DNA from: Rhodospirillales bacterium Ga0074136
GTDB lineage: Bacteria; Pseudomonadota; Alphaproteobacteria; Acetobacterales; Acetobacteraceae
Direction of reading: 5' to 3'
Assembly (NCBI GenBank): GCA_001464375.1
Contig: LNEW01000220.1
Span: 1,228 to 65,227 of the forward strand
DNA length: 64,000 bases
Numbering within the stretch: position 1 is the stretch's first letter; each line of letters starts with the position of its first letter. The notes under the pieces were generated by a model that did no database searches, was not told the origin of the DNA, and saw only the letters and a list, made by a program, of their open reading frames with translations. Shown piece by piece: positions 7,370 through 61,661 of the stretch. Both the position numbers and the translations under genes were made by a program.

Positions 7370-7999
7370 CTATTCGCCGAGGCCGAGCCCATCCGTGATC
7401 GCCCCCGGCGCGCCGGCCTGCCACCAGTTCCCCGCGCCCGCCCAGCCGCGGTCGAGATCCAGCCGCCGCACGTCGCGCGCCAGCGCGGCCGTGGCCTGTT
7501 CGGCGGCCGGCAGCGGGCCGATGGCGCCCAGGCGGTCGAGCGTCGCCTCCCCGCCCGGTTCGAACAGGCTGGCGGGCAGCGCGGCGGCGGCACCCCCGCG
7601 GTCACCCGCGCGCAGCCGCGAAGCCGTGAGCGAGAGGGCGCGCACCACGTCCCCGCCTGGCGCGCGCTGCGCGATGCCCAAGGCAGCGCGCGTCTCGTCG
7701 CGCGCGGTACGCATTGCGATGCCGATCGAGGGCGACAGCGCCGGCCAGGCGCGGCGGTCGGCCACTTCCATCTCCAGCGCCTCGAGCCGCGCGATGGCGA
7801 GTGCGGCGTCTGCCGGGCGGCCCTGCACTGCCGCGCCCTGGTTCGTGAAGGCCGCCGCGGCTGCGAAGACCGCCGCGCGCAACGGTGCGCCCGAGCCTGG
7901 CGCACCGGCGAGGATCGCCGGCGGCGGGGTGGCGGGGGTGCGCAATTCCTCGCAGCCGAACAGGGCGATGGGTGCCAGCAGAAGGACGCGACGTTTCAT
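7370..7999 (-). CDS. lipoprotein, hypothetical (paralog of the next gene)
   Basis: Inner start MKRRVLLLAPIALFGCEE (lipobox) of ORF 7370..8269. Alignable by eye with the 8002..8586 product. Confidence 0.6.
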   Translation of the reverse strand: MKRRVLLLAPIALFGCEELRTPATPPPAILAGAPGSGAPLRAAVFAAAAAFTNQGAAVQGRPADAALAIARLEALEMEVADRRAWPALSPSIGIAMRTARDETRAALGIAQRAPGGDVVRALSLTASRLRAGDRGGAAAALPASLFEPGGEATLDRLGAIGPLPAAEQATAALARDVRRLDLDRGWAGAGNWWQAGAPGAITDGLGLGE

Positions 8000-14236: not shown

Positions 14237-14722
14237 TCAGCGCTTGGAGAACTGGAAGGAACGTCGGGCCTTCGCCTTGCCGTACTTCTTGCGCTCGACC
14301 ACGCGCGGGTCGCGCGTGAGGAAGCCCGCCTTCTTGAGGATGGCCCGGAGCTCCGGTTCGTAGTTGGTCAGCGCGCGGGAGATGCCATGGCGCACCGCGC
14401 CGGCCTGGCCCGACAGGCCACCGCCCACCACCGTGCAGTTCACGTCGAACTGCTGGTAGCGGTCGGCCACCAGGAAGGGCTGGGTGATCAGCATGCGCAG
14501 CACCGGACGGGCGAAGTAGCGCGCCGCGGGCTTGTCGTTGATCAGGATCTGGCCCTTGCCGGGCTTCACCCACACGCGGGCCACCGCATCCTTGCGGCGG
14601 CCGGTGGCATAGGCGCGGCCCTGCGCATCGCGCTTGGGTTCGCGCTTGATCGCGGCCTCGGGCGCCGCCGGCGTGCCGGCGACCATCTCCTTGAGGTCGG
14701 CGAGTGTACGGGTCTCGCTCAT
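14237..14722 (-). CDS. rpsI: 30S ribosomal protein S9
   Basis: 161-aa ORF ending ...[19 protein letters not shown]...[25 protein letters not shown]. Confidence 0.97.
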
Positions 14723-14726
14723 GACC

Positions 14727-15185
14727 TCAGGCCACCTTCTTCACGAGAACGGAATTCTTGCGGTTCAGCGCCGCGATATCGAGCTTGGTCGGCTGCTGAC
14801 CGGCGTGCGGATGCTCGGCACCGGCATAGACATGCAGGTTGCGCATCTGCTCGCGGCCGAGCGGGCCGCGCGTGATCATGCGCTCGACCGCCTTCTCGAT
14901 AACCCGCTCGGGGTACTTGCTCTCGAGGCGCTCGCGCACGGTGCGCTGCTTGATGCCGCCGGCGTAGCCGGTGTGCCAGTAGAAGATCTTCTGCTCGGCC
15001 TTGGCGCCGGTCACGCGGATCTTCTCGGCATTGACATGCGGAGTGAATTGCGGCTTGTGCTTGCCGCGAAGGCGATTGGCCACGAGTGTCGCGAGGCGGC
15101 CGAGCACGAGCCCATCCGCATCGATCAGCACCCAGGCCTTCGTCACCTCCGCCGGCTTCAGCGAGGTGGTCTGTCTCGTGAGCAT
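14727..15185 (-). CDS. rplM: 50S ribosomal protein L13 (apparently carrying a 9-aa internal deletion)
   Basis: Inner start [51 protein letters not shown]|NAEKIRVTG... of ORF 14727..15248. rplM-rpsI operon order. See the finding on the missing DxGDxVIVI block. Confidence 0.9.
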
Positions 15186-15293
15186 CGGTTTTCCAGGTTC
15201 AGGCGTGTTTGGTGGCCGGCTTATCGGCACTGGGCGCCGGAAAGTCAAGCGATCCGGCGCCTTGCTGCCTTTGGTATCCTGCTACCGCAATTA

Positions 15294-16544
15294 TCAGCCC
15301 CCGGCGAGGCTGTCGAACCAGGTCTTCCAGGCCGGCACCGACCGCGCATAGGTGCCGCGATGGGTGGCATCCGCGCCGGCGGAGATCGCCTCGACCGTGG
15401 CGTTGCCCATGGCGCGCTGGAAGTCCATCGCGAGGCGGCCAATGCCCACGCGGATCGCCTCGTCGCTCTCGCCATAGTAATTGCGCACCGGCGTGCGGAT
15501 CAGCCAGCGATAGACCTGGTTCGCCGCCAGCAGGCGCCCGAGGGCGGACGCGCCGAAGAACGCCGGGTCGAAATACGCATCATTCACCAGGCTGCGCAGC
15601 GCCGTCGGGATCCGCGCCGGATCGACCGCCTCCCCCCGCCAGGCGCGCTGGGCGATGTCGTAGTGGTCCGGCTTCAGGACCGATCGCGCCAGGCCCGGGA
15701 CGGCGTAGTAGGTCTCGAACGAGAACGACACCAGGATGAACAGCGTGGTGATCCAGGATGCGTCGTTCGGCCGCGGGAAATTCAGGTAGCCGGTCAGCGT
15801 CGCCCAGGGATCGACCGGCGCACTGGCCGTGACCGCGGCACGCACCGGCACCCCGATCGCCTCCAGCCGTTCGAGCAGCGCCATGGTCACATAGCCACCC
15901 TGCGACCAGCCGGCGAGGAACAGGCCGGACGCCGACAGGCCCAGCGCCTGCAACACCGACCGCGCGGCCGGGATCAGGTCGGCACACGCCTGCTGGTGGC
16001 TGCCCTTCACCATGTAGCCCTGGGGCTCGGTGGATTCGCCCATGCCGATGTAGTCGGCGCCGACCATCGCGTAGCCCTGCCCGGCGAACTGCGCGAGCAT
16101 CAGCTGCGTTTCCGGGGATTGCTCGGGAAACGAGGGCACCTGCTGGCGGCCGTACACCGTGCCGTGCTGGTAGGACACCAGGGGAAGCGTCGTCTGACCG
16201 CCTTCCGGGACGGCGAGAAGGCCACTCAGCGTGACCGGCCTGTTGCCGCGTTCCGGCACGACGGAGGGATAGCTCACGCGATACAGTCGCACCGCATTGC
16301 GCGCAGGCGCGTAGGTGACCGGCACGCCGAAGAAGGCGGGCGTATCGACAGCCAGGATGCGGTTGAGCCTGTCGACATCCCACCGACCCACCAGGCGGTA
16401 GGTGACCCCACCCGCAACCGACGCGGCGGCGGCATCCGACTGCGCCGCGGCTGGCACTGTCGCCGCGGCCAGCGCGCTTATCGACAGGGCAGCGCCGCCC
16501 AGGCGGCGGCGCGAGAATGGCAAAGGCACGCCGGCGTTGGTCAT
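15294..16544 (-). CDS. secreted alpha/beta-hydrolase (lipase/esterase-like)
   Basis: 416-aa ORF. N-terminal signal with a twin-arginine-like FSRRRLGGAALSISALAAATVPAAAQ. Nucleophile elbow GWSQGG. Confidence 0.75.
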   Translation of the reverse strand: MTNAGVPLPFSRRRLGGAALSISALAAATVPAAAQSDAAAASVAGGVTYRLVGRWDVDRLNRILAVDTPAFFGVPVTYAPARNAVRLYRVSYPSVVPERGNRPVTLSGLLAVPEGGQTTLPLVSYQHGTVYGRQQVPSFPEQSPETQLMLAQFAGQGYAMVGADYIGMGESTEPQGYMVKGSHQQACADLIPAARSVLQALGLSASGLFLAGWSQGGYVTMALLERLEAIGVPVRAAVTASAPVDPWATLTGYLNFPRPNDASWITTLFILVSFSFETYYAVPGLARSVLKPDHYDIAQRAWRGEAVDPARIPTALRSLVNDAYFDPAFFGASALGRLLAANQVYRWLIRTPVRNYYGESDEAIRVGIGRLAMDFQRAMGNATVEAISAGADATHRGTYARSVPAWKTWFDSLAGG

Positions 16545-29794: not shown

Positions 29795-31438
29795 ATGGCC
29801 AGCACGCCCGACACCTTCGACTACGTCATCGTCGGCGCCGGTGCCGCCGGGTCCATCCTGGCGGCGCGGCTGACCGAGGACCCGGGCGTGACGGTCTGCG
29901 TGTTGGAAGCCGGTCCGCCCGACCGCAACTTCTTCATCCACCTGCCCGCGGGCTTCATCAAGACGCTGGTTGACCCATCCGTCACCTGGCAGTTCAAGAC
30001 CGCGCCGACCGAGCGTACCGGCGGGCGCGCCATCGCGACCACGCAGGGGCGCACGCTGGGCGGGTCGTCCTCGGTGAATGGCATGATCTACAATCGCGGG
30101 CAGCCAAACGACCTGAATGCCTGGGCGCAGCGCGGCAATCGCGGCTGGGGTTATGCGGATTGCCTGCCCTACTACATGCGCACCGAAAAGCGCGTCGGCG
30201 CCGGGCGCGACGACCGCCGCGGGCGCGAGGGCGCGCTGCCGGTCACCGACATGGACTGGATCCACCCGCTCAGCGAGGCCTTCATCGAAGGCTGCATCGG
30301 CGCGGGCGTGCCACGTGCGCCGGACTACAACAGCGGCGACCAGGCCGGCGTGGGGTATTTCCAGCGCGCCATCCAGGGTGGCTGGCGCGTATCGGCCGCA
30401 CGCGCCTTCCTGCACCCGGCGATGGCACGCAAGGAGCTCGAGGTGCGAACCAACGCACGCGCCTGCGGCATCGTCTTCGAAGGCCGTCGCGCGGTCGGCA
30501 TCCGCTACCTGACCGCACGCGGCGCGCAGCCGGTCGAGGTGCGCGCGCGGCGCGAGGTGATCCTGTCCGCCGGCACGGTGAACACTGCGCGGCTGATGCA
30601 GGTGTCGGGCATCGGGCCGGCCTCGACGCTGGCGCGGATCGGCGTGCAGGTGTTCCACGACCTGCCGGTCGGCGAGAATTTCCGCGACCACTACGCGTCG
30701 CGCATCGTCATGCGCGCCAAGCCGGATACCGAGACACTGAACCAGCTCGCCCGCGGCTTCGGCCTGGTGAAGCAGCTGGCGCGCTGGGCGACCGGCAAGC
30801 CGAACATCCTGGCGACCGCGCCATCGCATGTGCACCTGTTCTGGAAGTCCTTCGAAGGGCTCGACGAGCCCGACCTGCAATGCGTGTTCACCCCCGGCTC
30901 CTATGCCGAGGGCAAGGTCTATGTGCTGGACGATTACCCGGGCTGCACCGCCGGCGCCTGGCAGCACCGCCCCGACAGCGTCGGCTGGGTGCGCGCGAAG
31001 ACCGCCGATGTCTTCGACGACCCCGAGATCCAGCCCAACTACCTGAGCGACGAGAACGACCGTCGCGTCCACCTGGGCGGCATGCGCCTGATCCGACGCC
31101 TGCTTCACACGCCGCAGATGATGCGCTTCCTGGAACGCGAGACGCTGCCCGGCCCGACCATCGAGCGCGATGACGAGTTGCTCGACTTCGCCTATCGCAA
31201 CGGCAGCACGACCTACCACCTCATCGGCACCTGCCGCATGGGGCCGGAGACCGACACCACCTCGGTGGTGAATGACCGGCTGCAGGTGCACGGGCTGCAG
31301 GGGCTGCGCGTGGTGGATGCGTCGGTGATGCCGTCCATGCCCTCGGCCAATACCTACGCCACCACCATGATGATCGCGGAGAAGGCGGCGGACTTCATCC
31401 GCGGCCGCGCGCCCCTGCCCGCGGCGGAAGCGGCGTGA
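29795..31438 (+). CDS. GMC-family FAD-dependent oxidoreductase (choline-dehydrogenase-like)
   Basis: 547-aa ORF: FDYVIVGAGAAGSILAARL (FAD GxGxxG), GRTLGGSSSVNGMIY, C-terminal HLIGTCRMG...VVDASVMP. Its stop overlaps the crtC GTG start (GTGA). Confidence 0.9.
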   Translation: MASTPDTFDYVIVGAGAAGSILAARLTEDPGVTVCVLEAGPPDRNFFIHLPAGFIKTLVDPSVTWQFKTAPTERTGGRAIATTQGRTLGGSSSVNGMIYNRGQPNDLNAWAQRGNRGWGYADCLPYYMRTEKRVGAGRDDRRGREGALPVTDMDWIHPLSEAFIEGCIGAGVPRAPDYNSGDQAGVGYFQRAIQGGWRVSAARAFLHPAMARKELEVRTNARACGIVFEGRRAVGIRYLTARGAQPVEVRARREVILSAGTVNTARLMQVSGIGPASTLARIGVQVFHDLPVGENFRDHYASRIVMRAKPDTETLNQLARGFGLVKQLARWATGKPNILATAPSHVHLFWKSFEGLDEPDLQCVFTPGSYAEGKVYVLDDYPGCTAGAWQHRPDSVGWVRAKTADVFDDPEIQPNYLSDENDRRVHLGGMRLIRRLLHTPQMMRFLERETLPGPTIERDDELLDFAYRNGSTTYHLIGTCRMGPETDTTSVVNDRLQVHGLQGLRVVDASVMPSMPSANTYATTMMIAEKAADFIRGRAPLPAAEAA

Positions 31439-32370
31439 GCGATCGCCCCTGGTCCTTCGACCAGCCCGTCGCGTCGCGCGGGTATCGCTGGTGGTATATC
31501 GATGCGCTGTCGGATGACGGCGCGCATGGCATCACCATCATCGCCTTCATCGGCACGGTCTTCTCGCCCTGGTATGCCTGGGCGCATCGCCGCGGCTCGG
31601 TCGATCCGGCCGAACACTGCTGCGTGAATGTCGCGCTGTACGGCACGCCGAAACGCTGGGCGATGACGGACCGGCGCGCCAGCGCGCTGACGCGCGATGC
31701 GGATACGCTCGCCATCGGCCCTTCGTCGCTGCACTGGGACGGGACAGCGCTGACGATCGATATCGAGGAGGTCACGGCGCCGATCCCCGCGCGCCTCGCA
31801 GGGCGCATCCGCGTCCTGCCCGATGCGCTGTCCGACCGGTCCTTCGTGCTGGATGGCGCGGGCCGCCACCGCTGGCAGCCGATCGCCGCACGCGCGCGGG
31901 TGGAAGTGTCGCTGACGCATCCCACGCTGACCTGGTCCGGCCCGGCCTATTTCGACACCAACACCGGCACCGCGCCGCTGGAGGATGATTTTTCCGAGTG
32001 GGACTGGTGCCGGGCACCCATGCGCGATGCGACGGCGGTGCTCTACAACGCCACGCGGCGCGACGGCACGTCGCAGTCCCTGGCGCTGCGCGTCGGGCGC
32101 GACGGCATAGTGGAGGATTTCGAACCGCCGCCGCCGGCGCAGATGGCACCCACGCTGTGGCGCCTGCCGCGGCCCACGCGCGCCGACGGCGGCCAGGCGA
32201 CCGCCACGCGCACGCTGGTCGATGCGCCCTTCTATTCGCGATCGGAGATCCGCACGCGCCTGCTCGGGCAGGACGCGACGGCAGTGCATGAATACCTGAA
32301 CCTCAGGCGGTTCCGCTCGCCGATCCTGTATTCGATGCTGCCCTTCCGGGTGCCGCGGACGCTGCGCTGA
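31435..32370 (+). CDS. crtC: carotenoid 1,2-hydratase (hydroxyneurosporene synthase)
   Basis: 311-aa ORF: ...GYRWWYIDALSDDGAHGITIIAFIGTVFSPWYAW...HCCVNVALYG... matches my memory of the CrtC family N-terminus. Lies in the crt neighbourhood. GTG start. Confidence 0.75.
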   Translation: MSDRPWSFDQPVASRGYRWWYIDALSDDGAHGITIIAFIGTVFSPWYAWAHRRGSVDPAEHCCVNVALYGTPKRWAMTDRRASALTRDADTLAIGPSSLHWDGTALTIDIEEVTAPIPARLAGRIRVLPDALSDRSFVLDGAGRHRWQPIAARARVEVSLTHPTLTWSGPAYFDTNTGTAPLEDDFSEWDWCRAPMRDATAVLYNATRRDGTSQSLALRVGRDGIVEDFEPPPPAQMAPTLWRLPRPTRADGGQATATRTLVDAPFYSRSEIRTRLLGQDATAVHEYLNLRRFRSPILYSMLPFRVPRTLR

Positions 32371-33499
32371 CCGGCGCATCGCCACGCCACCCGACATCGA
32401 GCGTCGCGACCTCCCCGAAGGTTGCGCGGCTCGCGATGGCGGCGCGGATGATGGGCCAGGTGGTGAAGCACATGGTCAGGAAAGGCATCGGGTCGCGCGC
32501 GCTCCATGTCACGTCGCGCGTCGAGACCAGCGTGCGGAGATTGTGCTGGAAGCCGCCGCCGCGGAACAACGAGAGCTGCGTCTCGGTCAGGCAGGAATAG
32601 AATTGCTGGAGGCGCGTCTCTGGCCGGAAACGCAGCGGGTGGCCAGCGTCGAGCACGGCGGGGGCCAGGTCCTCCGGCGCGAAGAAGTGCAGGCCGCTGG
32701 TGGTGCGCGGGTTGCACTCGATCGCGAAGGGGTGGCCCTGCTGGTCCAGCATGAAGTCGAAGGACAGGAAGCCGGTCCAGCGTGTTGCCGCCGCGTAGCC
32801 GCGCACGAAGCGCTCGATCAGCGGGTCCTCCACGCGTTCGAAGGCGATGCTGACCGAACCCGACTGCATCACGCCCTGATACACGACCGTGCCGCTGACC
32901 ACGCCGTCATGCACCAGCGAACAGGTACTGCGCTCCATGCCAAAGACATGGCCCTGCACGATCGCGGGCGCCGCGGGATCGGCGGCGGGCAGGTCAGCGC
33001 CGCGGCGGACGACGCGCACGCCGCGCCCCGAACAGGCATGCAGCGGCTTGACCACGACATCCTGGCGCTGCGCGAGCGCAGCGGCCTCGGTGCTGCCCAG
33101 CGGGTGGGTGGGTGGCACCGCGAGGCCCCAGCCATCCGACTGGACAGCGAAGCGGCCCTTGTCATGCGCGGCGAGCACCACCTCCTGCGGCATTGCGAAA
33201 AGCCGGGTGCGCGACGGCAGCCGCCCGTGCAGCGCGGCGACATGCACGACTTCCTCGGAGACCGGCAGCACGAGGTCGACGTCTTCCTCAGCCACCACGC
33301 GCAGCAGGTCGCACAGGTAGGCCTCGGCATCGCTCGCGGGGGCGGTCACGACGTGACTGCGGGCGACGGACTTCGAGGCCCCGGCCAGATGCCGGCGGAA
33401 GGGCTCCGCCACGATCACGCGCCAACCCGCGCCATGGAATGCGCGCGCCAGGTCCAGCGCCTTGGGCAGCCGCCCCAGCGTCAGCAGCACCGTGTTCAT
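32303..33499 (-). CDS. ATP-grasp domain ligase, substrate unknown
   Basis: 3' part of ORF 32303..33967 from MNTVLLTLGRLPKALDLARAFHGAGWRVIV. ATP-grasp core ...VVVKPLHACSGRGV...FLSFDFMLDQQGHPFAIECNPR. ATGA overlap with the P450 stop. Its 3' end overlaps the crtC 3' end by 68 nt (convergent). Confidence 0.8.
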   Translation of the reverse strand: MNTVLLTLGRLPKALDLARAFHGAGWRVIVAEPFRRHLAGASKSVARSHVVTAPASDAEAYLCDLLRVVAEEDVDLVLPVSEEVVHVAALHGRLPSRTRLFAMPQEVVLAAHDKGRFAVQSDGWGLAVPPTHPLGSTEAAALAQRQDVVVKPLHACSGRGVRVVRRGADLPAADPAAPAIVQGHVFGMERSTCSLVHDGVVSGTVVYQGVMQSGSVSIAFERVEDPLIERFVRGYAAATRWTGFLSFDFMLDQQGHPFAIECNPRTTSGLHFFAPEDLAPAVLDAGHPLRFRPETRLQQFYSCLTETQLSLFRGGGFQHNLRTLVSTRDVTWSARDPMPFLTMCFTTWPIIRAAIASRATFGEVATLDVGWRGDAPVSAASAAPGRAASNTGSASGTA

Positions 33500-34875
33500 G
33501 GCACCGGCGTCGTGGTGACCATGATCTGCCCGACCGGGCGCGTGGTCAGCCGGGCCGCGGGGCGCACCGTCTCCGGCGCTACCACGTGGAAGTCGAAGCG
33601 GCGGAACAGCCGCGCCACGAGCAGCACGGTTTCGACCTGCGCAAAGGCCGCGCCGGCACACACGCGGGGGCCGATCCCGAAGGGGATGTAGGCGCCGGTC
33701 GTCATCTCCGCCTCGCGCGAGGCATCGAAGCGGTCGGGGTCGAAGACGTGCGGGTTGCGCCAGTAGCTCTGGTGGCGGTGCAGGACCCAGGGCGCCACCA
33801 TGACCAGCGCGCCGCGCTTCACGCGGTAGCCGTCGAGCGACGTCGCCACGTTCGCCACTCGCGGCAGGAAGGTGATGGGCGGATACAGCCGTAGCGTCTC
33901 GCGGAAGATGTTGCGGATGAACGGCAGCTTGCGCGTGTGCTCGAAGGTGACGGGCCCATCGCCGCATACCGCATCCACTTCCCCGCGCAGGCGCGCGACC
34001 AACGCGGGCTGTATGGCCAGTATATAGAACACCCAGGTCAGAGCGCTGGCGCTGGTCTCGTGCCCCGCCAGGAACAGCACGCCGAGCTGGTCGATCAGTT
34101 CCTCGCGCGTGAAGGCACGTCCCTCACCGTCGCGCGCTTCGATCACCGCCTGGCAGATGTCGTCGAAGGACGCTCCGGCGGCGAGGTGCGTGTCGAGCAG
34201 CGCACCCAGGTGCCCGCGGATCAGCGCGCAGGCGTCCAGCACATGCTGCTTCTGCGGAATGCGCGTCCAGGCGCGATCCAGGATCAGGCGGCGGATCTCC
34301 ACCTGCGCGACCGAGCGTTCGAAATCGGTGAAGGCGTCGAAGACCTCGTGCGCCACCTGGCTTTCGAGGCTGGTCGAGAACACCGTGCGGCAGATGATGT
34401 CGGCCGTGAGGTGGCTCATCATCAGGTCGAGCGAGAACGGCGCGGTGCTGCGCGCCAGGGTTTCCTCGGTCGCCGCCACGCCCGCCTCCATCGCGGGGAA
34501 GGCGCGGTTCACGCGCATCATGGTGAGCGCCGGGTCGATCATGGCGCGCTGGCGCCGCCAGGTATCGCCGGAGGAGACGAAGATCGAATCGCCGATCAGC
34601 GGGTCGAGCGCTTCCACCATCAGGTCGGATTTCGGGAAGATGCCCTCGGGATCGGCCAACACATGCCGCACCAGATCGGGGCGATTGACGATGATGGTCG
34701 ATCGGCGCGACCAGCCGAGCGGGCCGATCGGCATGCGATAGGCCTCGGCGGGCAGCAGGCCCAGCAGGTTGCCTTCGCCTTCCATCATGGCGCGAATGAG
34801 AGCGATCACCGCGGGCAGCGACCGCGGGTGCGGCGGTTCGAAGGGTGCCCATGGAAGCGTGCGCGCGGCGCTCAT
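33496..34875 (-). CDS. cytochrome P450
   Basis: ORF 33496..34956, with a more likely start at MSAARTLPW (34875). I-helix FLAGHETSA, ExxR (ETLR), heme loop FGIGPRVCAG. Confidence 0.9.
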   Translation of the reverse strand: MSAARTLPWAPFEPPHPRSLPAVIALIRAMMEGEGNLLGLLPAEAYRMPIGPLGWSRRSTIIVNRPDLVRHVLADPEGIFPKSDLMVEALDPLIGDSIFVSSGDTWRRQRAMIDPALTMMRVNRAFPAMEAGVAATEETLARSTAPFSLDLMMSHLTADIICRTVFSTSLESQVAHEVFDAFTDFERSVAQVEIRRLILDRAWTRIPQKQHVLDACALIRGHLGALLDTHLAAGASFDDICQAVIEARDGEGRAFTREELIDQLGVLFLAGHETSASALTWVFYILAIQPALVARLRGEVDAVCGDGPVTFEHTRKLPFIRNIFRETLRLYPPITFLPRVANVATSLDGYRVKRGALVMVAPWVLHRHQSYWRNPHVFDPDRFDASREAEMTTGAYIPFGIGPRVCAGAAFAQVETVLLVARLFRRFDFHVVAPETVRPAARLTTRPVGQIMVTTTPVP

Positions 34876-34963
34876 GGCAGGCGCATCGAGAGCGGCGGCG
34901 CACCGCGGTTTCCTGCCCGTTTCACGGCCGTCGGGCTTCCCCTGCATCCGCGCCATTCCGTTG

Positions 34964-34985
34964 CTTGACAGCGATATCTGTCAAG
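34964..34985. promoter_or_regulatory. perfect 8-bp inverted repeat CTTGACAG-N6-CTGTCAAG in the divergent P450 / membrane-protein-crtD intergenic region (candidate operator with two opposed TTGACA hexamers)
   Basis: Read directly from the sequence: cttgacag cgatat ctgtcaag. Lies in a locally AT-richer gap. The half-sites are the same as the TGTCAA/TTGACA halves of the PpsR-type boxes further right, but in swapped order. Confidence 0.5.
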
Positions 34986-35021
34986 CCCGATTGTCGAATC
35001 AAAGCGCGAGGGCCATCGAGG

Positions 35022-35759
35022 ATGGAACTTCTCCTGTTCCACAGCCTGGTCGCCGCCCATATCGTCACGGGCGCGACGGGCGCTATCGCCTTCTGGGTGC
35101 CCGTGCTGGGCCGCAAGGGTGGCGTCAATCATCGCTGGTGGGGCCGGCTTTTCAATCGCTGCATGCTGATCACCGGCAGTCTTGCGATGGGCATGGCGAG
35201 CCTGACGCTGATCGACCCGATCGGCACGCATCCCCACCTGGAAGGGCGCTTCGACGAAGCGTTCCTGCGCGGCATCTTCGGATGGATGATGCTGACCACG
35301 GCGCTGCTGACGATCAACCTCGCCTGGTATGGCTGGCTTGCGGTGCTGAACAAGCGCGGCGGGCATGATCGCAACCGCACGCCACTGAACATCGCGCTGC
35401 AGTACATCCTGCTTGCGGCGTCGTTGAACTGCGCGCTGCAGGGCTGGCTGATCGGACAGCCGCTGATGTACGGCATCGCCGTGGTGGGTGTCGCGACGGT
35501 CGTGACCAACCTGCGCTTCCTCTGGGCGGCCGCGCCGGGGCCGACCTATTGGCTCAAGGAACACGTGAAGGCGTTGGTCGGCGCGGGCATCTCGGTCTAC
35601 ACGGCCTTCATGGCCTTCGGGTCGGTGCGCATCCTGCCGGAACTCGCGCTGCATCCGGTCATGTGGGCCATCCCCTGCGCCACGGGCATCGGCATCATCC
35701 TGTGGCACTGGCGCGCGGTGGACCGGCAATTCGCCGCGCGCCGCGCGGTCGCCGCCTGA
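35022..35759 (+). CDS. uncharacterised polytopic membrane protein (about 6-7 TM), probably co-transcribed with crtD
   Basis: Inner ATG of ORF 34845..35759: MELLLFHSLVAAHIVTGATGAIAFWVPVL... Repeated hydrophobic segments. Its stop is 6 nt before the crtD ATG. Confidence 0.7.
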   Translation: MELLLFHSLVAAHIVTGATGAIAFWVPVLGRKGGVNHRWWGRLFNRCMLITGSLAMGMASLTLIDPIGTHPHLEGRFDEAFLRGIFGWMMLTTALLTINLAWYGWLAVLNKRGGHDRNRTPLNIALQYILLAASLNCALQGWLIGQPLMYGIAVVGVATVVTNLRFLWAAAPGPTYWLKEHVKALVGAGISVYTAFMAFGSVRILPELALHPVMWAIPCATGIGIILWHWRAVDRQFAARRAVAA

Positions 35760-37308: not shown

Positions 37309-38811
37309 TCAGGCCGTCCTGACGAAGGCCGCGCCTGCCGGCACCACCTGGTCGAGCAGCTTGGCCGAGGAGATCACCCCCGGCACGCCGGCGCCCGGAT
37401 GCGTGCCCGCGCCCACCAGGAACAGGTTCGCCACTTCCTCGCTGACATTGTGCGGGCGGAACCAGGCGCTCTGGAACAGTTGTGGTTCAAGGGCGAAGGC
37501 CGCGCCGTTCACCGAGAGCAGTCGGTCGCGGAAATCCTGCGGCGTCATGACGCGGGAAGTCACCAGCGCCTCGCCCAGGCCGGGCAGCACGGTGTCCTCC
37601 AGGCGCTTCTGGATCGCGGCGCGATAGGGCTCCGCCTTCGTTGCCCAATCCGTGCCGCTGCCCAGATGCGGCACCGGCGCCAGCACGTAGAAGGAATCGC
37701 AGCCCTCCGGCGCCAGCGACGGATCGGTGGCCGAGGGCCGGTGCAGGTACAGGCTGAAATCGTCCGACAGGTGCTTGCGCGTGAAGATGTCGCGCAGCAA
37801 TTCGCCGTAGCGCGGGCCGAGCACCATGGTGTGGTGATACACATCCTCGTAGCGCCGCTTCGTGCCGAAATACCAGACGAACAGGCTCATGGAGTACCGC
37901 GCGCGCGCGATCTTGCGGTCGGTCCAGCGGCGCCGCTTGTGGTGGCCGAGCAACTTCGAATAGGTCCAGGCCACGTCGGCATTCGAGACCACGATGTCGG
38001 CCGCGATCCGCTCGCCCGATTCCAGCGTCACGCCGGTGGCGCGGCCCTGGTCCACCTCGATGCGGGCGACCTCGGCATTGCAGCGCAGCGTGCCGCCCAA
38101 CCCATCGATCAGCCCGACCATGCCCTGCACCACCGCCCCCATCCCGCCCATCGCGTAGTGCACGCCGTGCATGCGTTCCAGATGCGCGATCAGGCAGTAG
38201 TAGGCCGTGGTGGTCAGCGGGTTGCCGCCGATCAGCAGCGGATGCTCATTCGAGAAGTAGTCGCTGACGCGCGAATAGACCGTGCGGTAGCCCTGCAGCC
38301 GGATCATGTCCGGCGCCGCCTTCAGCAGCGTGCCGAGGCGATGGAACGGGCGGTCGGCGAGCTCCTCGAAGGCGACCTTGTAGATGCGCTCGCTCTCGAG
38401 GATGAAGCGTTCGAAGCCGGCCAGGTCCTCGGGCGCGATGCGGCGGATCTCGGCGCGCGTCGCCTCGATGTCGGCGGAACAGCGCATCACCGTGCCGTCG
38501 TCGAAGCGGATGAAGTAGAACGGGTTCATCTCCCGCAGGTCGACGTCATCCGACAGACGCCGTCCCGCCAGCGCCCACAGTTCCTCGAGCAGGTAGGGCG
38601 CGGTGATGATGGTGGGGCCGGCATCGAAGGTGAAGCCGTCCTGGCGGAACACATAGGCGCGCCCGCCCGACGCATCGAGCTTCTCCAGCACCGTCACGCG
38701 CCAGCCGCGCGCACCCAGGCGGATCGCGGCAGCCAGGCCGCCGAAGCCGGATCCGATCACCACCGCATGCGGGCGTGTGTCGCGGGGTGTCTCGTTGCCG
38801 TCGCGCGCCAT
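37309..38811 (-). CDS. crtI: phytoene desaturase (apparently carrying an 8-aa internal deletion)
   Basis: 500-aa ORF: HAVVIGSGFGGLAAAIRL...GGRAYVFRQDGFTFDAGPTIIT...SLFVWYFG...FSLYLHRPSATDPSLAPEGC...NLFLVGAGTHPGAGVPGV. See the finding on the missing LRQAFSFH block. Confidence 0.9.
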   Translation of the reverse strand: MARDGNETPRDTRPHAVVIGSGFGGLAAAIRLGARGWRVTVLEKLDASGGRAYVFRQDGFTFDAGPTIITAPYLLEELWALAGRRLSDDVDLREMNPFYFIRFDDGTVMRCSADIEATRAEIRRIAPEDLAGFERFILESERIYKVAFEELADRPFHRLGTLLKAAPDMIRLQGYRTVYSRVSDYFSNEHPLLIGGNPLTTTAYYCLIAHLERMHGVHYAMGGMGAVVQGMVGLIDGLGGTLRCNAEVARIEVDQGRATGVTLESGERIAADIVVSNADVAWTYSKLLGHHKRRRWTDRKIARARYSMSLFVWYFGTKRRYEDVYHHTMVLGPRYGELLRDIFTRKHLSDDFSLYLHRPSATDPSLAPEGCDSFYVLAPVPHLGSGTDWATKAEPYRAAIQKRLEDTVLPGLGEALVTSRVMTPQDFRDRLLSVNGAAFALEPQLFQSAWFRPHNVSEEVANLFLVGAGTHPGAGVPGVISSAKLLDQVVPAGAAFVRTA

Positions 38812-47382: not shown

Positions 47383-47426
47383 TGTCAGCGTAGAATGACG
47401 TAAATTACTGTCAAGCTATTCTGACA
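47383..47426. promoter_or_regulatory. bchC promoter region with two PpsR/CrtJ-type palindromes 8 bp apart
   Basis: Perfect TGT-N12-ACA at 47409..47426 (TGTCAAGCTATTCTGACA) and a near-perfect one at 47383..47400 (TGTCAGCGTAGAATGACG). Strongly AT-rich gap. TTGACA lies inside the upstream palindrome when read on the minus strand. Same architecture as the Rhodobacter bchC promoter. Confidence 0.75.
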
Positions 47427-49555: not shown

Positions 49556-49573
49556 TGTCAACTTAATCTGACA
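49556..49573. promoter_or_regulatory. PpsR/CrtJ-type box upstream of crtE
   Basis: Perfect TGT-N12-ACA: TGTCAACTTAATCTGACA in the AT-rich part of the 275-bp bchJ-crtE gap. Contains TTGACA when read on the minus strand. Confidence 0.7.
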
Positions 49574-50333: not shown

Positions 50334-51992
50334 TCAGTCCCCCTGCAGCGTGACCCTTTCGCGCGGCGGCGTCATCGCATCCATCTGCGCTTCCGTCAGT
50401 TGATCCGAACCACCGCCACAGGCACGCACCTCGGCATTGGCCGCCGGGATCTTCACCTTCGGGCGATGCATGGTCTTCCACATCGCGTTATGCGGCGCGC
50501 GCGCGGCTTCGGTGGTCAGCGTGCGCGATGCGTCGAAGTGGAAATCGACATTCTTCTTCGACTGAGGCCCCCAGTAGCCGACCTTACCGAGGTCGTAGAA
50601 GGTCCGCTGAAAGCCGGATTTCGCGAAGGCCCACAGGCAGCCCAGCATGTACTTCCGCTTCACCTTGTCGCGGATCCACGGGTAGCCCAGGAAGGTCTTG
50701 CGCAGGTAGAAGCGACGGTAGTTGTGCATGGTGCGATCAAGCAGCGTGGCGCGGTCCATCGCGTCCGGCTTCATGATCGGCGTGACGAAATTGTACTTCG
50801 AGAAGTCGAACACCTCGACCTTGTCGCCGAGTTCCTTGAACAGGTCATTGAACGGCCAGGGCGTGTACATGGCCCAGTTGGCCATGTCCGGATTCCAGTC
50901 GAGCGCCATGCGGTAGGTCTCTTCCAGCGTTTCCGGCGTCTCGTTCTCGAGCCCGACGATGAACTGCGCCTCGGCGACGATGCCGTTCTGGCGCAGCAGC
51001 TGGATCGCCTTCTTATTCTGCGCGACCGTGGTCTCCTTGTTGAAGCGGTCGAGCTTCAACTGTGCCGCGGCCTCAGTGCCCAGCGAGATGTGGATCAGCC
51101 CCGCCTTCCGGTACAGCGGCAGCAGCGCCTCGTCGCGCAGGATGTCGGTCACGCGGGTGTTGATGCCCCACAGCACGGGCAGGTTGCGCTCGATCAGCGC
51201 CTCGCAGAATTCGACGAACTTCTTCTTGTGGATGGTGGGTTCCTCATCCGCCAGGATGAAGAAGCCGACGCCGTGGTTACGCACCAGATCCTCGATCTCG
51301 TCGACGACCTTCTTCGGGTCGCGCACCCGGTAGTCGCGCCAGAATTTCCACTGACTGCAGAAGGAACAGGTGAAGGGGCAGCCGCGCGCGAGGTTCGGGA
51401 TCGCCACGCGCGTGTTCATCGGGATGTAGATGTACTTGGACCAGTCGAGGATGGCCCAGTCGGCGACAATCCGGTCGACCTCCTTGATCGGCGGGCAGGC
51501 GGCGTTCGCCACGACCGTCCCGTCCTCGGCGGCGAAGGCGATGCCCTTCACGCTGGCGCGCTCGGCCGGCCAGCGGCCTTCGTCGATGCAGCGCACCAGG
51601 TCGAGCAGCACCTGCTCGCCCTCCCCGCGCACCACCACGTCGATCCATGGCGCCTCGGCCAGCACCTGCGGGTACATGAAGGTGCCGTGGATGCCCCCCA
51701 GAACCGTGACGGCCTGCGGGCAGGTCTCCTTGGCCAGCTTCAGCAGCGACTCGGCTTCGTAGATCGCGGGCGTGATAGCCGTCGCACCGATCAGGTCGGG
51801 CTTCAGTTCCGCGAGACGATCGCGCACCTGGTCATGCGTCAGGTGGTTCGTCATCGCGTCGATGAAGGTGATGTCGGTGTAGCCCGCAGCCTTCAGGTAG
51901 CCGCTCAGGTAGGCAACCCAGGATGGCGGCCAGCTGCCGGCGATCTCGGCGCCGCCGGAATGGTAGTTCGGATGAATGAGGACGATACGCAT
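50334..51992 (-). CDS. bchE: oxygen-independent Mg-protoporphyrin IX monomethyl ester oxidative cyclase (B12-binding radical SAM)
   Basis: 552-aa ORF: [14 protein letters not shown]... (B12-binding domain) and radical-SAM CxxxCxxC as GCPFTCSFC. Confidence 0.92.
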
Positions 51993-52065: not shown

Positions 52066-52083
52066 TGTCAATCTACGTTGACA
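52066..52083. promoter_or_regulatory. PpsR/CrtJ-type box upstream of bchE, overlapping the crtB stop codon
   Basis: Perfect TGT-N12-ACA: TGTCAATCTACGTTGACA (also TGTCAA-N6-TTGACA). The crtB TGA stop is at 52070..52068, inside the box. Confidence 0.7.
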
Positions 52084-53120
52084 GTTGACACATTGAAGAG
52101 GCGGCGATCGCCCTCGCGGTCGATCTGGTCCATCACCTCCAGCGCCCAGACCAGGCGCGAGCCCCAGCCGCGCGGGATCAGCCCGCGCGGACGGGGCGAA
52201 GCGGCAACCGCGTCGACCAGGTAGGATGCCGCCGCGCAGGGCGGCTCCCCTGCCCCGTGACGGCGCCCGACCAGCGCGCCGGCGGCGCGCGCCAGCAGCA
52301 CCGCCTTGCGCCAGCCCGGCACCACGGCGCGGCGGCTGATGGAATCGAACCCGTTGCGCGCCACCTCGCGGCCGATCTCGGCATAGATCACGCGCGCGGC
52401 GCCGATTCCCGCGCGGCAGTCGCGCGGCAGCAGCGCGATGCCGGCGCCCGCGCGCGCGTAGTGCATGTCGGCCTCCGCCAGGAGCCGCGCGGTCAGCCGC
52501 CCGATCGCCGGCGTGAAGCGAGGCGCCGCCAGGAATTCCTCGGGCGCGATACCTTCCGCCCGCAGCCAGGACAGCGGCAGGAACAGCCTTCCCTCGCGCG
52601 CATCCTCGCCGATGTCGCGCGCGATGTTGGTCAGTTGCATCCCGAGGCCGAGGTCGCAGGCGCGCGCGATCGCGTCGGTGTCGCGCACGCCCATCAGCAG
52701 CGTCATCATCGCGCCCACGGTGCCGGCCACGCGCGTGGCATAGGCTTCGAGAGCGGGCATGTCCTCGTAGCGCCGCCCGACCGCATCCCAGGCGAGGCCC
52801 TCCAGCAGCGCCCCCGGCAAGGTGCGCGGAATGCCGAAATGGTGCACCACCGCGGCGAAGGCGCGATCGACCGGGTCATCCTGCGGATCGCCCGCATAGG
52901 CGGCATCGAGCCGCGCGACCAGGCGCTCCATCGCCGCCTGCTTGCTCTGCGACAGGTCGATCTCGTCGTCCGCGACACGGCAGAAGGCATAGAGCGCGGC
53001 GGCCGGTGCCGCGATCCAGCGCGGCAGCAGCATCGATGCCGCGTGGAAGGTTTTCGACCCACCCGCCAGCAGGTGCCGGCAATGGGCGAGGTCGGACTCG
53101 GCAATCCGGAACCCGGTCAT
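52068..53120 (-). CDS. crtB: phytoene synthase
   Basis: 350-aa ORF: squalene/phytoene synthase motifs YAFCRVADDEID and GMQLTNIARDIGED. ATGA overlap with the upstream DUF3422-like gene. Confidence 0.93.
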   Translation of the reverse strand: MTGFRIAESDLAHCRHLLAGGSKTFHAASMLLPRWIAAPAAALYAFCRVADDEIDLSQSKQAAMERLVARLDAAYAGDPQDDPVDRAFAAVVHHFGIPRTLPGALLEGLAWDAVGRRYEDMPALEAYATRVAGTVGAMMTLLMGVRDTDAIARACDLGLGMQLTNIARDIGEDAREGRLFLPLSWLRAEGIAPEEFLAAPRFTPAIGRLTARLLAEADMHYARAGAGIALLPRDCRAGIGAARVIYAEIGREVARNGFDSISRRAVVPGWRKAVLLARAAGALVGRRHGAGEPPCAAASYLVDAVAASPRPRGLIPRGWGSRLVWALEVMDQIDREGDRRLFNVSTVNVD

Positions 53121-54406
53121 GCTTCCTCCCGTTCCATTCGCCGTCTCACGCGGCGCGTGGCAAAGAACACCGCCGCCGCCACCAGCGGCACGGCCAGGCC
53201 GATCACCACGTCGTCGCGGATCGGCACGCGGCTATCCGACAGCGCCTTGGCGGCATAGGCGATCAGGCCGACGACGTAGTAGGTGATGGCCGCGACCGAG
53301 AGTCCCTCGACCGTCTGCTGCAGCCGCAATTGCTGACGCGCGCGCCGGTCCATCGACGCCAGCAGCGCCTGGTTCTGGCGTTCGCGCGTGAGGTCGACGC
53401 GCGTGCTCAGCAATTGCGTCGCGCGGGCGACGCGTTGGGAGAGCATCTCCTGCCGCTGCGCCATCACCAGGCAGGTGTTCATGGCGGGCGCGAGGCGCCG
53501 CTCGGTGAATTCGCGCACCGTCTGCAGGCCCTCGATGCGGCCCTCGCGCAGGTCCTCGATGCGCTGGCGCACGATCTCGTAATAGGCGGCGGCGGCGGAG
53601 AAGCGGTAGCGGTTGCGCGCCTCCCCGCTCTCGGTCTCGGCGGCCAGGCGCGTCAGCCGGTCGAGCAGCACCGGCTCATCGTTTTCCCCGCACGCGACCA
53701 GCGCATCGGCGACGGCCGCGAGTTCGCGCTCATGCGCGGCAAGCACCGGGGAGAGTTCGCGCGCCAGCGGAAACGCCAGCAGCGCCATGACGCGATAGGT
53801 GTCGATCTCGAGCAGCCGCTGCACGATCCGCCCGGCCTGGCGTTCGCCGGTGCCGCGGTCGATCAGCAGGAACCGGCTGAAGCCGTCGGGCTGGATGCGG
53901 AAATCCGTGATGGCGGTGGCGCGCCCGGCGCTGACCTCGGCACCGATCAGATGGTTGCCGGCAAAGTAGCGCGCCGACAGCGCCGCGAGGTCGAGCGGCG
54001 CACCGTCATCGGCCACCAACGCCACCTGCTGCGCGGCGATGACCCGCCCAGGCAGCGCGGCCAGCCAATCGGCCGGCAGGACGTTCACGGCGGTGGTCGC
54101 GAAGGGGTCCGCCGCCACGCCGCGCACGATCACCATGAAGCGGCTGAATTCGGTGTGGCGTTCCCATTTCAGCCGGAAGGGACCGAAATCGGCGCTGTAA
54201 TGCGCCGCCCCGGCCGGGGGGGGCGGCGCGCCGAAACGCCGCGCGAGGTCCTGCACCGCGGCCAACGCCTGGTCCCGCGGCGCACCTTCCGGGGGGATAA
54301 GCGCGAGGTGCGAAATGCGACTGGGCGGTGTGAGTGCCTCGGGCGGGCGGGCATGGACCTCGTCGTTGAGCTCGGCGCGCAGCGGATGCGAGGGCGGGAT
54401 GCTCAC
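53117..54406 (-). CDS. DUF3422-like membrane-anchored protein (large soluble N-domain, long helical stalk, two C-terminal TM helices)
   Basis: 429-aa ORF, GTG start overlapping the bchO stop (GTGA): MSIPPSHPLRAELNDEVHARPPEALTPPSRISHLAL... matches my memory of the DUF3422/COG4949 N-terminus. C-terminus has GLSVAAITYYVVGLIAYAAKAL and VVIGLAVPLVAAAVFFATRRV. Family assignment not verified. Confidence 0.8.
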   Translation of the reverse strand: MSIPPSHPLRAELNDEVHARPPEALTPPSRISHLALIPPEGAPRDQALAAVQDLARRFGAPPPPAGAAHYSADFGPFRLKWERHTEFSRFMVIVRGVAADPFATTAVNVLPADWLAALPGRVIAAQQVALVADDGAPLDLAALSARYFAGNHLIGAEVSAGRATAITDFRIQPDGFSRFLLIDRGTGERQAGRIVQRLLEIDTYRVMALLAFPLARELSPVLAAHERELAAVADALVACGENDEPVLLDRLTRLAAETESGEARNRYRFSAAAAYYEIVRQRIEDLREGRIEGLQTVREFTERRLAPAMNTCLVMAQRQEMLSQRVARATQLLSTRVDLTRERQNQALLASMDRRARQQLRLQQTVEGLSVAAITYYVVGLIAYAAKALSDSRVPIRDDVVIGLAVPLVAAAVFFATRRVRRRMEREEA

Positions 54407-60557: not shown

Positions 60558-61661
60558 CTACCAGGCCGGCGCCAGGCGGGCGTCGGCGGGCAGTTCGTGC
60601 CGGCGCGGCCGTCGCAGGAAGGCGCGCAGGAAGGTGGCGCCGGCCGCGACCGTCAGCCCGGCCCGCTTCACGCCGCCCAGCACGCCGCCCTGCGCCTTCG
60701 CTGCGCCAATGGACTCCGCCAGCGTGCGGAGCTTCTCCATGTCACGCAGGAAGCCCGGGTGGTCGATGTCGAGCGTCGCCGGGAAGACCTGGCGGCAGAT
60801 CTCCTCGGTGATGCGGAACACGCGCATGTCGTAGTCGGTCGGTGTCATGCCGAGCGCCTTGTGGAATTCCGGCCGTGCATGGTCGCGCACGTACATCGTG
60901 GCGAAGACCGCGAGCTGGAAGAAGCGGCACCACCAGACATTGCCGCCACTGACCAGCGACGGGTTTGCGCGCATCAGCAGGGCGAAGGCCTCGCCGTGGC
61001 GGAACTCGTCGTTGCACCACTTCTCGAACCACTGGAAAATCGGGTGGAAGCGAAGCTCGGGGTGCTTCTCGAACTGCCGGAAGATGGTGATGTAGCGGGC
61101 GTAGCCGATCTTCTCCGACAGATAAGTGGCGTAGAAGATGAACTTCGGCTGGAAGTAGTGGTACTTCTTGGCGCGCGTGAGGAACCCCAGGTCCACGCCG
61201 ACGCCGATATCCTTCAGGCTGTCGTTGATGAAGCCGGCATGGCGGCTTTCGTCACGGGCCATCACGGAGAACAGCTCCTTGATGTCGGGGTTGGTCACGC
61301 GCTTCTTGATCTCGGCATAGAGCACGCAGCCGGAGAATTCCGCCGTGACGCTGCTCACCAGGAACTCGACCAGTTCCTTCTGCAGGCCGGGCGGCAGGCT
61401 GCTGAGGTCGAACTTGTCGAAATCCTCGTTGCGGACGAAGTGGCCCTTGTTGGGGTCGGCGCGGAACTCGTCCATCAGCCGGTCCCACTGCACGCGCAGC
61501 GGTTCGACATCGACCTTGTCCATGGCCGCGAAATCGGTGGTGTAGAAGCGCGGGCTGAGCGCCGTCTCGGTCATCGCCATCTTCGTGGCGACGGCGGAGG
61601 ATCCCTGCTTGGTCGTGATCAGCCCATCATCCGGGCCGCCGAGGACGAGCGCTTCCATCAC
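60558..61661 (-). CDS. acsF: oxygen-dependent Mg-protoporphyrin IX monomethyl ester cyclase
   Basis: 367-aa ORF: SPRFYTTDF... and di-iron ExxH motifs ([20 protein letters not shown]). GTG 61661 or ATG 61658 overlaps the upstream stop. Confidence 0.93.

Follow-up and report, generated by a model that had tools for sequence, protein, structure and literature searches.

A putative carotenoid-tailoring module of cytochrome P450, ATP-grasp and membrane-protein genes in the photosynthesis gene cluster of an Acetobacteraceae bacterium

The enzymes that form the C-19 and C-20 carotenals and carotenoic acids of phototrophic bacteria are unassigned, as stated in reviews of 2021 and 2023; the group includes lycopenal, rhodopinal, bacteriorubixanthinal, and the aldehyde and acid groups of gemmatoxanthin. 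An earlier note on the DNA studied here, made from the sequence alone, had said of the oxidases for cross-conjugated carotenals that they are genetically unassigned, in agreement with these reviews. Here we analyze a stretch of 64,000 nucleotides (hereafter the window) from Rhodospirillales bacterium Ga0074136, a member of the Acetobacteraceae (contig LNEW01000220.1, positions 1,228 to 65,227), in which genes for a cytochrome P450, an ATP-grasp enzyme and a small membrane protein stand between crtC and crtD of a photosynthesis gene cluster. In the literature on phototroph carotenoids, Roseomonas carotenoids and DUF2306 we found no paper that assigns or discusses these genes, and they are unmentioned in papers on Acetobacteraceae phylogeny, Sediminicoccus and CrtA.

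Several described systems resemble parts of this locus. For the conversion of a carotenoid methyl group to a carboxylic acid there is one named enzyme, CruH of the synechoxanthin pathway (cited in PMC8342508); by description it differs from the window P450 in belonging to an unrelated protein family, in acting on aromatic chi-rings and in having no ligase partner. The plant plastid enzymes CYP97A3 (LUT5) and CYP97C1 act on C40 carotenoids, hydroxylating beta or epsilon rings, and are P450 monooxygenases with the same I-helix, ExxR and Cys-ligand motifs as the window P450, but the latter is bacterial, is coupled to an ATP-grasp gene, and is expected to use acyclic or monocyclic substrates with psi-ends. 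Spheroidene monooxygenase, CrtA, is an O2-dependent heme enzyme of photosynthesis clusters that under oxic conditions adds a conjugated carbonyl beside an end modified by CrtC, CrtD and CrtF. We suggest the same role for the module where a lineage is said to be without crtA, although CrtA has a His-ligated heme and is not a P450, yields a C-2 keto product, and has neither an ATP-grasp nor a membrane partner. Sphingomonadales phototrophs are said to be such a group, and their photosystems bind bacteriorubixanthinal. In this pigment a 19'-aldehyde adjoins a 1'-methoxy-3',4'-didehydro end. Gemmatoxanthin likewise has an aldehyde next to a methoxy-didehydro end. P450s of carotenoid pathways are thus already known, whereas an ATP-grasp enzyme or a DUF2306-like membrane protein in such a pathway is not, and we know of no member of the window-type ATP-grasp family in one.

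The genes in question form two divergent units, one on each strand:

32303..33499, minus strand: ATP-grasp enzyme, 398 amino acids, PRK06849-like, second gene of the P450 operon
33496..34875, minus strand: cytochrome P450, CYP97-like, 459 amino acids, Pfam p450, first gene of the operon
35022..35759, plus strand: integral membrane protein, 245 amino acids, six predicted helices, divergent from the P450 gene
35766..37295, plus strand: CrtD, 1-hydroxycarotenoid 3,4-desaturase, 677.9 bits on the NCBIfam CrtD equivalog model against a cut-off of 580

We propose that these four genes make up a carotenoid-tailoring module in which oxygenation by the P450 would be followed by an ATP-dependent ligation, a reading to which, from gene content, profiles and synteny, we give an even chance. 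More generally, the P450, ATP-grasp and membrane genes very probably make a modified carotenoid that has not yet been assigned to genes. CrtC and CrtD would build the 1-hydroxy-3,4-didehydro psi-end of the spirilloxanthin series, which is established chemistry for the two families. The soluble CYP97-like P450 would use O2 to oxygenate the end region so made, its likeliest target being a methyl group (in-chain at C-19/C-20, or terminal) that is taken to an alcohol and onward to a carbonyl or carboxyl. The ATP-grasp enzyme would activate the carotenoid carboxylate as an acyl-phosphate and couple it, through an amide or ester bond, to a small polar partner, and the histidine-rich membrane protein would work in the bilayer, either as a further oxidase or by assisting the P450 in docking or electron transfer. 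From these steps a polar carotenoid with a carbonyl group would result, serving aerobic phototrophs without CrtA. Such a route from CH3 through CH2OH and CHO/COOH to a conjugate, as had been put forward for the locus before, is chemically reasonable.

The minus-strand pair with its ATGA overlap had been described in the earlier note, and open reading frames (ORFs), motifs, and Pfam and NCBIfam profiles agree with that description, as they do with the naming of the flanking genes crtC (NCBIfam CrtC, E 6.2e-96, a score under the cut-off) and crtD. The note had crtC and crtD parted by this two-gene operon. The operon is real, but the membrane-protein gene also lies between them; the note overlooked this gene, its 6-bp spacing to crtD and the shared region with PpsR-type sites described below. 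A ribosomally synthesized and post-translationally modified peptide (RiPP) cassette, with the ATP-grasp enzyme as peptide macrocyclase, was rejected: as had been observed already, there is no ORF for a precursor peptide, the genes overlap their neighbors, and the sole gap is a promoter region of 146 bp.

The link with carotenoid genes was followed across genomes. In a scan with one genome per bacterial species we obtained 304 relatives, and the best 80 of these were fetched with 10-kb flanks; together with five loci from other look-ups they make up a set of 85, in which gene presence was scored by tblastn with the window proteins. In every sufficiently long locus among the best 80, the order is membrane gene (minus), P450 (plus), ATP-grasp (plus), and in these 80 loci the P450 shares 68 to 93% identity with its window counterpart, the ATP-grasp enzyme 52 to 84% and the membrane protein 54 to 93%. 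The ATP-grasp gene is present in all 85 loci, the P450 gene in 79, and the membrane gene, beside the P450, in 71. A crt gene (crtD, crtI, crtC, crtB, crtY or crtF) lies within the fetched stretch in 78 of the 85, in differing arrangements; the seven loci without one are contigs of 2.5 to 13.6 kb. crtI itself adjoins the module in 56 loci. Where the full 10-kb flanks are present (51 loci), puf or bch genes are found in 28, and the other 23 all have crt genes directly alongside. Because these 23 keep their crt genes without puf or bch, and because the arrangements vary, the linkage to carotenoid genes is robust and independent of the photosynthesis cluster proper. Within the 85 loci, then, orthologous pairs do not occur mainly in non-pigmented bacteria with unrelated neighbors, and the suggestion of the earlier note that the location points to carotenoid tailoring gains from this linkage as well as from the P450, whose nearest relatives of solved structure are CYP97A3 and CYP97C1.

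The same breadth of synteny bears on whether the pair is unrelated cargo, that is, two genes for making a dipeptide or a secondary metabolite, or for handling a xenobiotic, which happened to be inserted between crtC and crtD. Some peptide pathways do combine an ATP-grasp L-amino-acid ligase with a P450, the window P450 has weak NCBIfam matches to the RiPP P450 ApyO and to cyclodipeptide-associated P450s, and ATP-grasp paralogs occur in non-carotenoid clusters. Those paralogs, however, are only 25 to 35% identical, and crt adjacency extends over 78 of the 85 loci, three orders and several arrangements, which is too broad for chance insertion. Accidental insertion is therefore largely refuted; we rejected it on these grounds, and we find the cargo explanation scarcely credible.

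The lineages that carry the module belong to the Acetobacteraceae, Sphingomonadales and Hyphomicrobiales, and its surroundings take the following forms:

Roseomonas, Falsiroseomonas, Rubritepida and Roseococcus: pufLMC-crtI-crtD-membrane gene, then P450-ATP-grasp(-crtC)
Paracraurococcus, Dankookia and Roseicella: crtI-membrane gene, then P450-ATP-grasp-crtC-crtD
Sphingomonadales, including the known aerobic phototroph Novosphingobium sp. AAP83: crtY-crtI-crtB-crtD-membrane gene, then P450-ATP-grasp(-crtF-crtC)
Rhabdaerophilum and a Beijerinckiaceae metagenome-assembled genome: ATP-grasp-P450, membrane gene, crtI, with crtI as the sole crt neighbor

In Sphingomonadales, crtY, crtC, crtD and crtF together with the module are the gene set that would be expected for a pigment of the bacteriorubixanthinal type. 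A distant metagenomic lineage (L089; 40% identity for the ATP-grasp enzyme and 54% for the P450) shows yet another layout, crtD<-P450 / ATP-grasp->GNAT, with the ATP-grasp gene on the opposite strand from the P450 and followed by an overlapping GNAT gene. The CrtD encoded directly downstream of the P450 in this lineage scores 603.7 bits, above the NCBIfam equivalog cut-off of 580.

By profile the P450 belongs to the cytochrome P450 superfamily (PF00067, E 5.8e-70, with 236.8 bits where the cut-off is 22.8), and its translation contains the I-helix motif AGHETS, the K-helix ExxR motif ETLR and the Cys-ligand loop FGIGPRVCAG, all of which align with CYP97A3. Its best sequence matches in the PDB are CYP97A3 (E 7.5e-50) and CYP97C1 (E 1.6e-33), with CYP46, CYP3A and CYP51 scoring well below. 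Identity to CYP97A3 is about one third as judged by eye from the HMMER alignment; by convention at least 40% amino-acid identity is needed for one CYP family, and we therefore call the protein CYP97-like and not a member of CYP97. Its top NCBIfam neighbors are the terpene methyl/allylic oxidases PtlI (pentalenene oxygenase, E 1.7e-48) and CYP170A1 (albaflavenone monooxygenase, E 3e-54), whose substrates are C15 sesquiterpenes; the window protein stays far under all such cut-offs, scoring 184 against 700 and 166 against 800 on these two equivalog models. PtlI and CYP170A1 oxidize allylic terpenoid carbons stepwise to carbonyls. The window P450 has no membrane anchor. Its ORF in full runs from 33496 to 34956 (minus strand), and since the upstream ATG at 34956 falls inside a conserved operator-like site, the likely start is the ATG at 34875, as had been taken before; the start at 34956 was rejected.

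The stop codon of the P450 gene and the start codon of the ATP-grasp gene share the letters ATGA (33496..33499, read directly). Overlaps of 4 nt occur between the two genes in 58 of 78 loci, overlaps of 1 nt in four more, and the protein database contains a fused P450/ATP-grasp fragment (P0358); by their reading frames, P450 and ATP-grasp form a translationally coupled unit. This bears on a rival scheme in which a cross-conjugated carotenal like bacteriorubixanthinal, rhodopinal or gemmatoxanthin is the work of the P450 alone, or of the P450 and the membrane protein, while the ATP-grasp enzyme has another target that is required simultaneously, be it a lipid of the membrane, a protein or a small cofactor. 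The Sphingomonadales genes would suit it well, amounting to a bacteriorubixanthin set plus one unexplained oxidation, as would the facts that known carotenals are free of conjugates and that the P450 is more conserved than the ATP-grasp enzyme (68 to 93% versus 52 to 84%). Yet the overlap has been retained in most loci and the pair is found together in every lineage, the distant ones too, and this unbroken pairing argues for consecutive steps on one substrate. We therefore consider action of the P450 alone unlikely.

The second enzyme of the pair is an ATP-grasp protein by Pfam (ATP-grasp_3, 26 bits against a cut-off of 23.2). It matches NCBIfam PRK06849 over its full length (E 1.3e-71, 241.6 bits), under the cut-off of 406, and by this profile it is a subfamily related to PRK06849, an uncharacterized equivalog, but outside the equivalog itself. 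The AIECNPR core is present in the translation, and K151, E261-x-N263 and R265 are invariant in an alignment of 13 orthologs; judged by these residues (the Lys for ATP, the E-x-N for Mg, and the Arg), the enzyme is catalytically intact. The AlphaFold2 (AF2) model has a mean predicted local distance difference test score (pLDDT) of 82.7, and both the model and the alignment show a conserved, family-specific helical extension at the C terminus (residues ~296 to 367). The tail that follows (residues 372 to 398, where the gene overlaps crtC) is of low complexity, poorly modeled, and missing from most orthologs. The three-domain fold is common to PylC, RizA, BL00235, PurD, PurK and biotin carboxylase (Foldseek E ~1e-15), and these ligases and carboxylases have the same Lys, E-x-N and Arg as the window enzyme. 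Given this shared fold and these residues, an acyl-phosphate mechanism would be expected, although identity to this group is only 12 to 20% and the C-terminal extension sets the family apart. A PDB search by sequence yielded generic ATP-grasp matches only and no close solved structure, and none of the close relatives is characterized.

The best matches of the ATP-grasp enzyme are proteins of Roseomonas and Neoroseomonas (80 to 84% identity), by which the source bacterium is Roseomonas-like within the Acetobacteraceae. A full-library profile search gave 758 cluster representatives at E<=1e-30. Both the P450 and the ATP-grasp enzyme have hundreds of full-length homologs, and they are therefore real genes and not chance ORFs. 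Homologs of the ATP-grasp enzyme at ~38 to 59% identity behave as orthologs, and those at 25 to 35% are paralogs. Paralogs were found in Nostocales, Paenibacillus, Brevibacillus and rhizobial plasmids; the plasmid collection contained paralogs only, at 34% identity or less. Some of them (loci L084, L086, L087 and L090, from Nostocales, Brevibacillus and a rhizobial-type plasmid) lie in conserved clusters of the form KASIII, ATP-grasp, Rieske, metallo-beta-lactamase and dehydrogenase. Others occur as a pair or a fusion with a GNAT acyltransferase. In more distant relatives of the window gene (L089, 4253..6450; L091, 7001..9249) a GNAT gene follows and overlaps the ATP-grasp gene, and P0287 unites both in a single protein of 751 amino acids. 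These contexts point to a chemistry of lipid-like acids and amines for the wider ATP-grasp family, by which the substrate here is not fixed. A gene of the Pfam FA_hydroxylase superfamily adjoins the ATP-grasp gene in two unrelated lineages (L081, 6490..7302; L088, 915..1790).

The GNAT genes also speak for a scheme with the reverse polarity, in which the P450 would only hydroxylate the carotenoid (for example at C-2 or a methyl group) and the ATP-grasp enzyme would activate a small free acid (an amino acid or a dicarboxylate, say) and esterify the new hydroxyl with it, giving an aminoacyl or acyl carotenoid ester. In related lineages a GNAT N-acyltransferase comes after the ATP-grasp enzyme or forms one protein with it, which suggests that a group with an amine is introduced and then acylated; the CYP97 relatives are hydroxylases, not acid-forming oxidases, and ester-forming ATP-grasp enzymes exist, among them the D-Ala-D-Lac ligases and the microviridin ligases. 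However, neither the module of the window nor any of the 80 closest loci contains a GNAT gene, aminoacyl carotenoids have not been described, and the activated substrate is not evident from sequence. We regard esterification of a hydroxylated carotenoid as improbable next to the proposed activation of a carotenoid carboxylate.

On the other side of the shared promoter region, crtD starts 6 bp downstream of the end of the membrane-protein gene. The membrane protein has more than 1200 homologs. In an alignment, five histidines, including those of a THPHL motif, are invariant, and an EHxK motif is also conserved; its AF2 model has a mean pLDDT of 83 and finds no fold match in the PDB (best E 0.08, TM-score below 0.3). 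Some of its UniRef homologs are named DUF2306, a family that a preprint predicts to bind heme. A DUF2306 protein is required for the oxygenation of a hydrophobic natural product (PMC12895699): this is PraC, needed for the terminal epoxidation in pramanicin biosynthesis and, like the window protein, a small polytopic membrane protein, but fungal, with 393 amino acids and five predicted helices. It is from PraC, by analogy, that we infer the possible role of the membrane protein given above.

A neighbor-joining tree of 61 CrtD sequences places the copies that adjoin the membrane gene or the P450 gene in one clade, which takes in those of the window, of Sphingomonadales and of the distant lineage L089. 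The crtC-adjacent CrtD of Paracraurococcus-type genomes forms a separate clade, and Falsiroseomonas sp. CW058 (L068) has one CrtD from each (6295..7653 and 14279..15637). Since the two clades are split by linkage, the module may travel with its own CrtD lineage.

Both units would be served by the region between them, in which we recognize two candidate sites for PpsR:

34876..35021, no strand: divergent promoter region of 146 bp, common to the P450-ATP-grasp and membrane-protein-crtD units
34953..34970, minus strand: site 2, PpsR-type palindrome, half-conserved, TGTCAAGCAACGGAATGG
34979..34996, plus strand: site 1, PpsR-type palindrome, TGTCAAGCCCGATTGTCG

The sequence TGT-N12-ACA is the recognition motif of PpsR/CrtJ, and in Rhodobacter such sites often stand in tandem about 8 bp apart and overlap the promoter. 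Sites 1 and 2 are 18 bp long and 8 bp apart, and each has one good half-site of TGTCAA-N6-TTGACA; site 1 departs from this consensus by two mismatches and overlaps back-to-back TTGACA hexamers that resemble -35 boxes. Of 69 orthologous intergenic regions, 63 have the motif of the divergent promoter, and those of Sphingomonadales have perfect TGT-N12-ACA sites at the position of site 1. A scan for sigma-70 promoters and terminators returned nothing relevant. Elsewhere in the window, near-perfect TGTCAA-N6-TTGACA palindromes stand in tandem, 8 bp apart, upstream of bchC (47383..47426), and singly at 49556..49573 and 52066..52083 (upstream of crtE and at the crtB/bchE junction). In Sediminicoccus, another phototroph of the Acetobacteraceae, two such sites have been reported upstream of bchC. 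Through the putative PpsR sites the module might be switched together with the photosynthesis genes.

Such co-regulation would suit a response to photo-oxidative stress, and with it a role in the turnover of carotenoids or in signaling, for example the conjugation of an oxidized apocarotenoid-like acid for export or sensing; oxidation followed by conjugation is typical catabolic or signaling logic. But no carotenoid cleavage oxygenase or transporter is conserved beside the module, which lies among biosynthetic crt genes and has its membrane-protein gene 6 bp upstream of crtD. Turnover or signaling thus seems to us a very unlikely function.

Several observations weigh against a biosynthetic module of oxygenation and ligation as we propose it. 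The oxidized carbon and the ligation partner are not readable from sequence, and no carrier of the module, the window strain included, has a known product. Bacteriorubixanthinal, rhodopinal and gemmatoxanthin bear no amide or ester conjugate, and because the known carotenals and carotenoic acids of these bacteria are of this kind, ligation by the ATP-grasp enzyme, which we infer, is the weakest link of the mechanism. Foldseek searches with the ATP-grasp model return generic ATP-grasp relatives only (TM-scores 0.5 to 0.6). For the membrane protein, Pfam gives no match at E<=1, DUF2306 (PF10067) included, and the DUF2306 label derives solely from UniRef names. As for the promoter region, the numbers of perfect TGT-N12-ACA sites and of sites within three mismatches of the consensus are not above chance in the window, and the conserved motif could be merely two back-to-back -35 boxes; with counts at chance and a motif that fits -35 hexamers, we treat co-regulation as a conjecture and not as a result. 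The most specific form of our proposal would make the P450 the missing oxidase that takes a methyl group to an acid or a cross-conjugated aldehyde in the photosystem carotenoids of aerobic phototrophs (those like bacteriorubixanthinal, rhodopinal and gemmatoxanthin), the ATP-grasp enzyme the first carotenoid ligase of its superfamily, giving amide or ester conjugates of a class not yet described, and the membrane protein a new oxygenase or redox partner. In this full form we put it forward only tentatively, as possible but on balance doubtful.

The module stands near the left end of the photosynthesis gene cluster, which by ORF and profile assignments spans from ~31.4 kb to the right end of the window. 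The G+C content of the window is ~70%. The order of genes in the cluster, and the immediate neighbors of the module, are as follows:

First part of the cluster: crtC, (ATP-grasp, P450), (membrane protein, crtD), crtI, pufC, pufM, pufL
Middle: bchZ, bchY, bchX, bchC, crtF, crtE, bchJ, bchE, crtB
Last part: DUF3422 gene, bchO, bchD, hemA, puhE, acsF, puhC, puhA
29795..31438, plus strand: GMC-family FAD oxidoreductase, Pfam GMC_oxred_N and GMC_oxred_C
31435..32370, plus strand: CrtC, carotenoid 1,2-hydratase, NCBIfam CrtC E 6.2e-96
37309..38811, minus strand: CrtI, phytoene desaturase, 597 bits on NCBIfam crtI_fam

CrtC scores 321 bits on its NCBIfam model, under the curated cut-off of 400. Its gene and the ATP-grasp gene are convergent and overlap tail to tail by 68 bp (32303..32370, read directly). 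The GMC oxidoreductase had been taken to be fused onto CrtC. It is instead a separate ORF, translationally coupled to crtC, its TGA overlapping the GTG start of crtC in the letters GTGA (read directly). By tblastn, this pairing is found among the 85 loci only in the six closest relatives (L001-L006). The oxidoreductase was therefore rejected as a member of the module, its pairing with crtC being restricted to one lineage, in which it may add a further step on carotenoids, for instance as an alcohol oxidase. Genes for a PIG-L deacetylase and an alpha/beta hydrolase lie to the left of the GMC-crtC pair, and this set too is kept only in the six closest Roseomonas-type genomes.

Three further features of the cluster and its relatives were seen. 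A DUF3422 gene (53117..54406, minus strand; Pfam E 2e-163) lies between crtB and bchO, inside the photosynthesis cluster. Two cyclases are encoded, the oxygen-independent BchE (50334..51992, minus strand) and the oxygen-dependent AcsF (60558..61661, minus strand). A gene for a small VTT/DedA-like membrane protein adjoins crtI in 23 of the 85 loci (e.g., L081..L083, 12383..12824), and in the window it is absent between pufC and crtI.

The module provides concrete and widely conserved candidate genes for the formation of carotenals and carotenoic acids in phototrophic bacteria, and it is carried by cultivable organisms, among them Roseomonas, Falsiroseomonas, Paracraurococcus, Rubritepida and Novosphingobium sp. 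AAP83. In aerobic phototrophs, both light harvesting and protection against singlet oxygen are under the control of carbonyl carotenoids. If the proposed ATP-grasp step is true, it would be a new type of reaction in carotenoid chemistry and could yield tools for making polar carotenoid derivatives; and if the proposed role of the membrane protein is true, it would give a second functional foothold in a large uncharacterized family.

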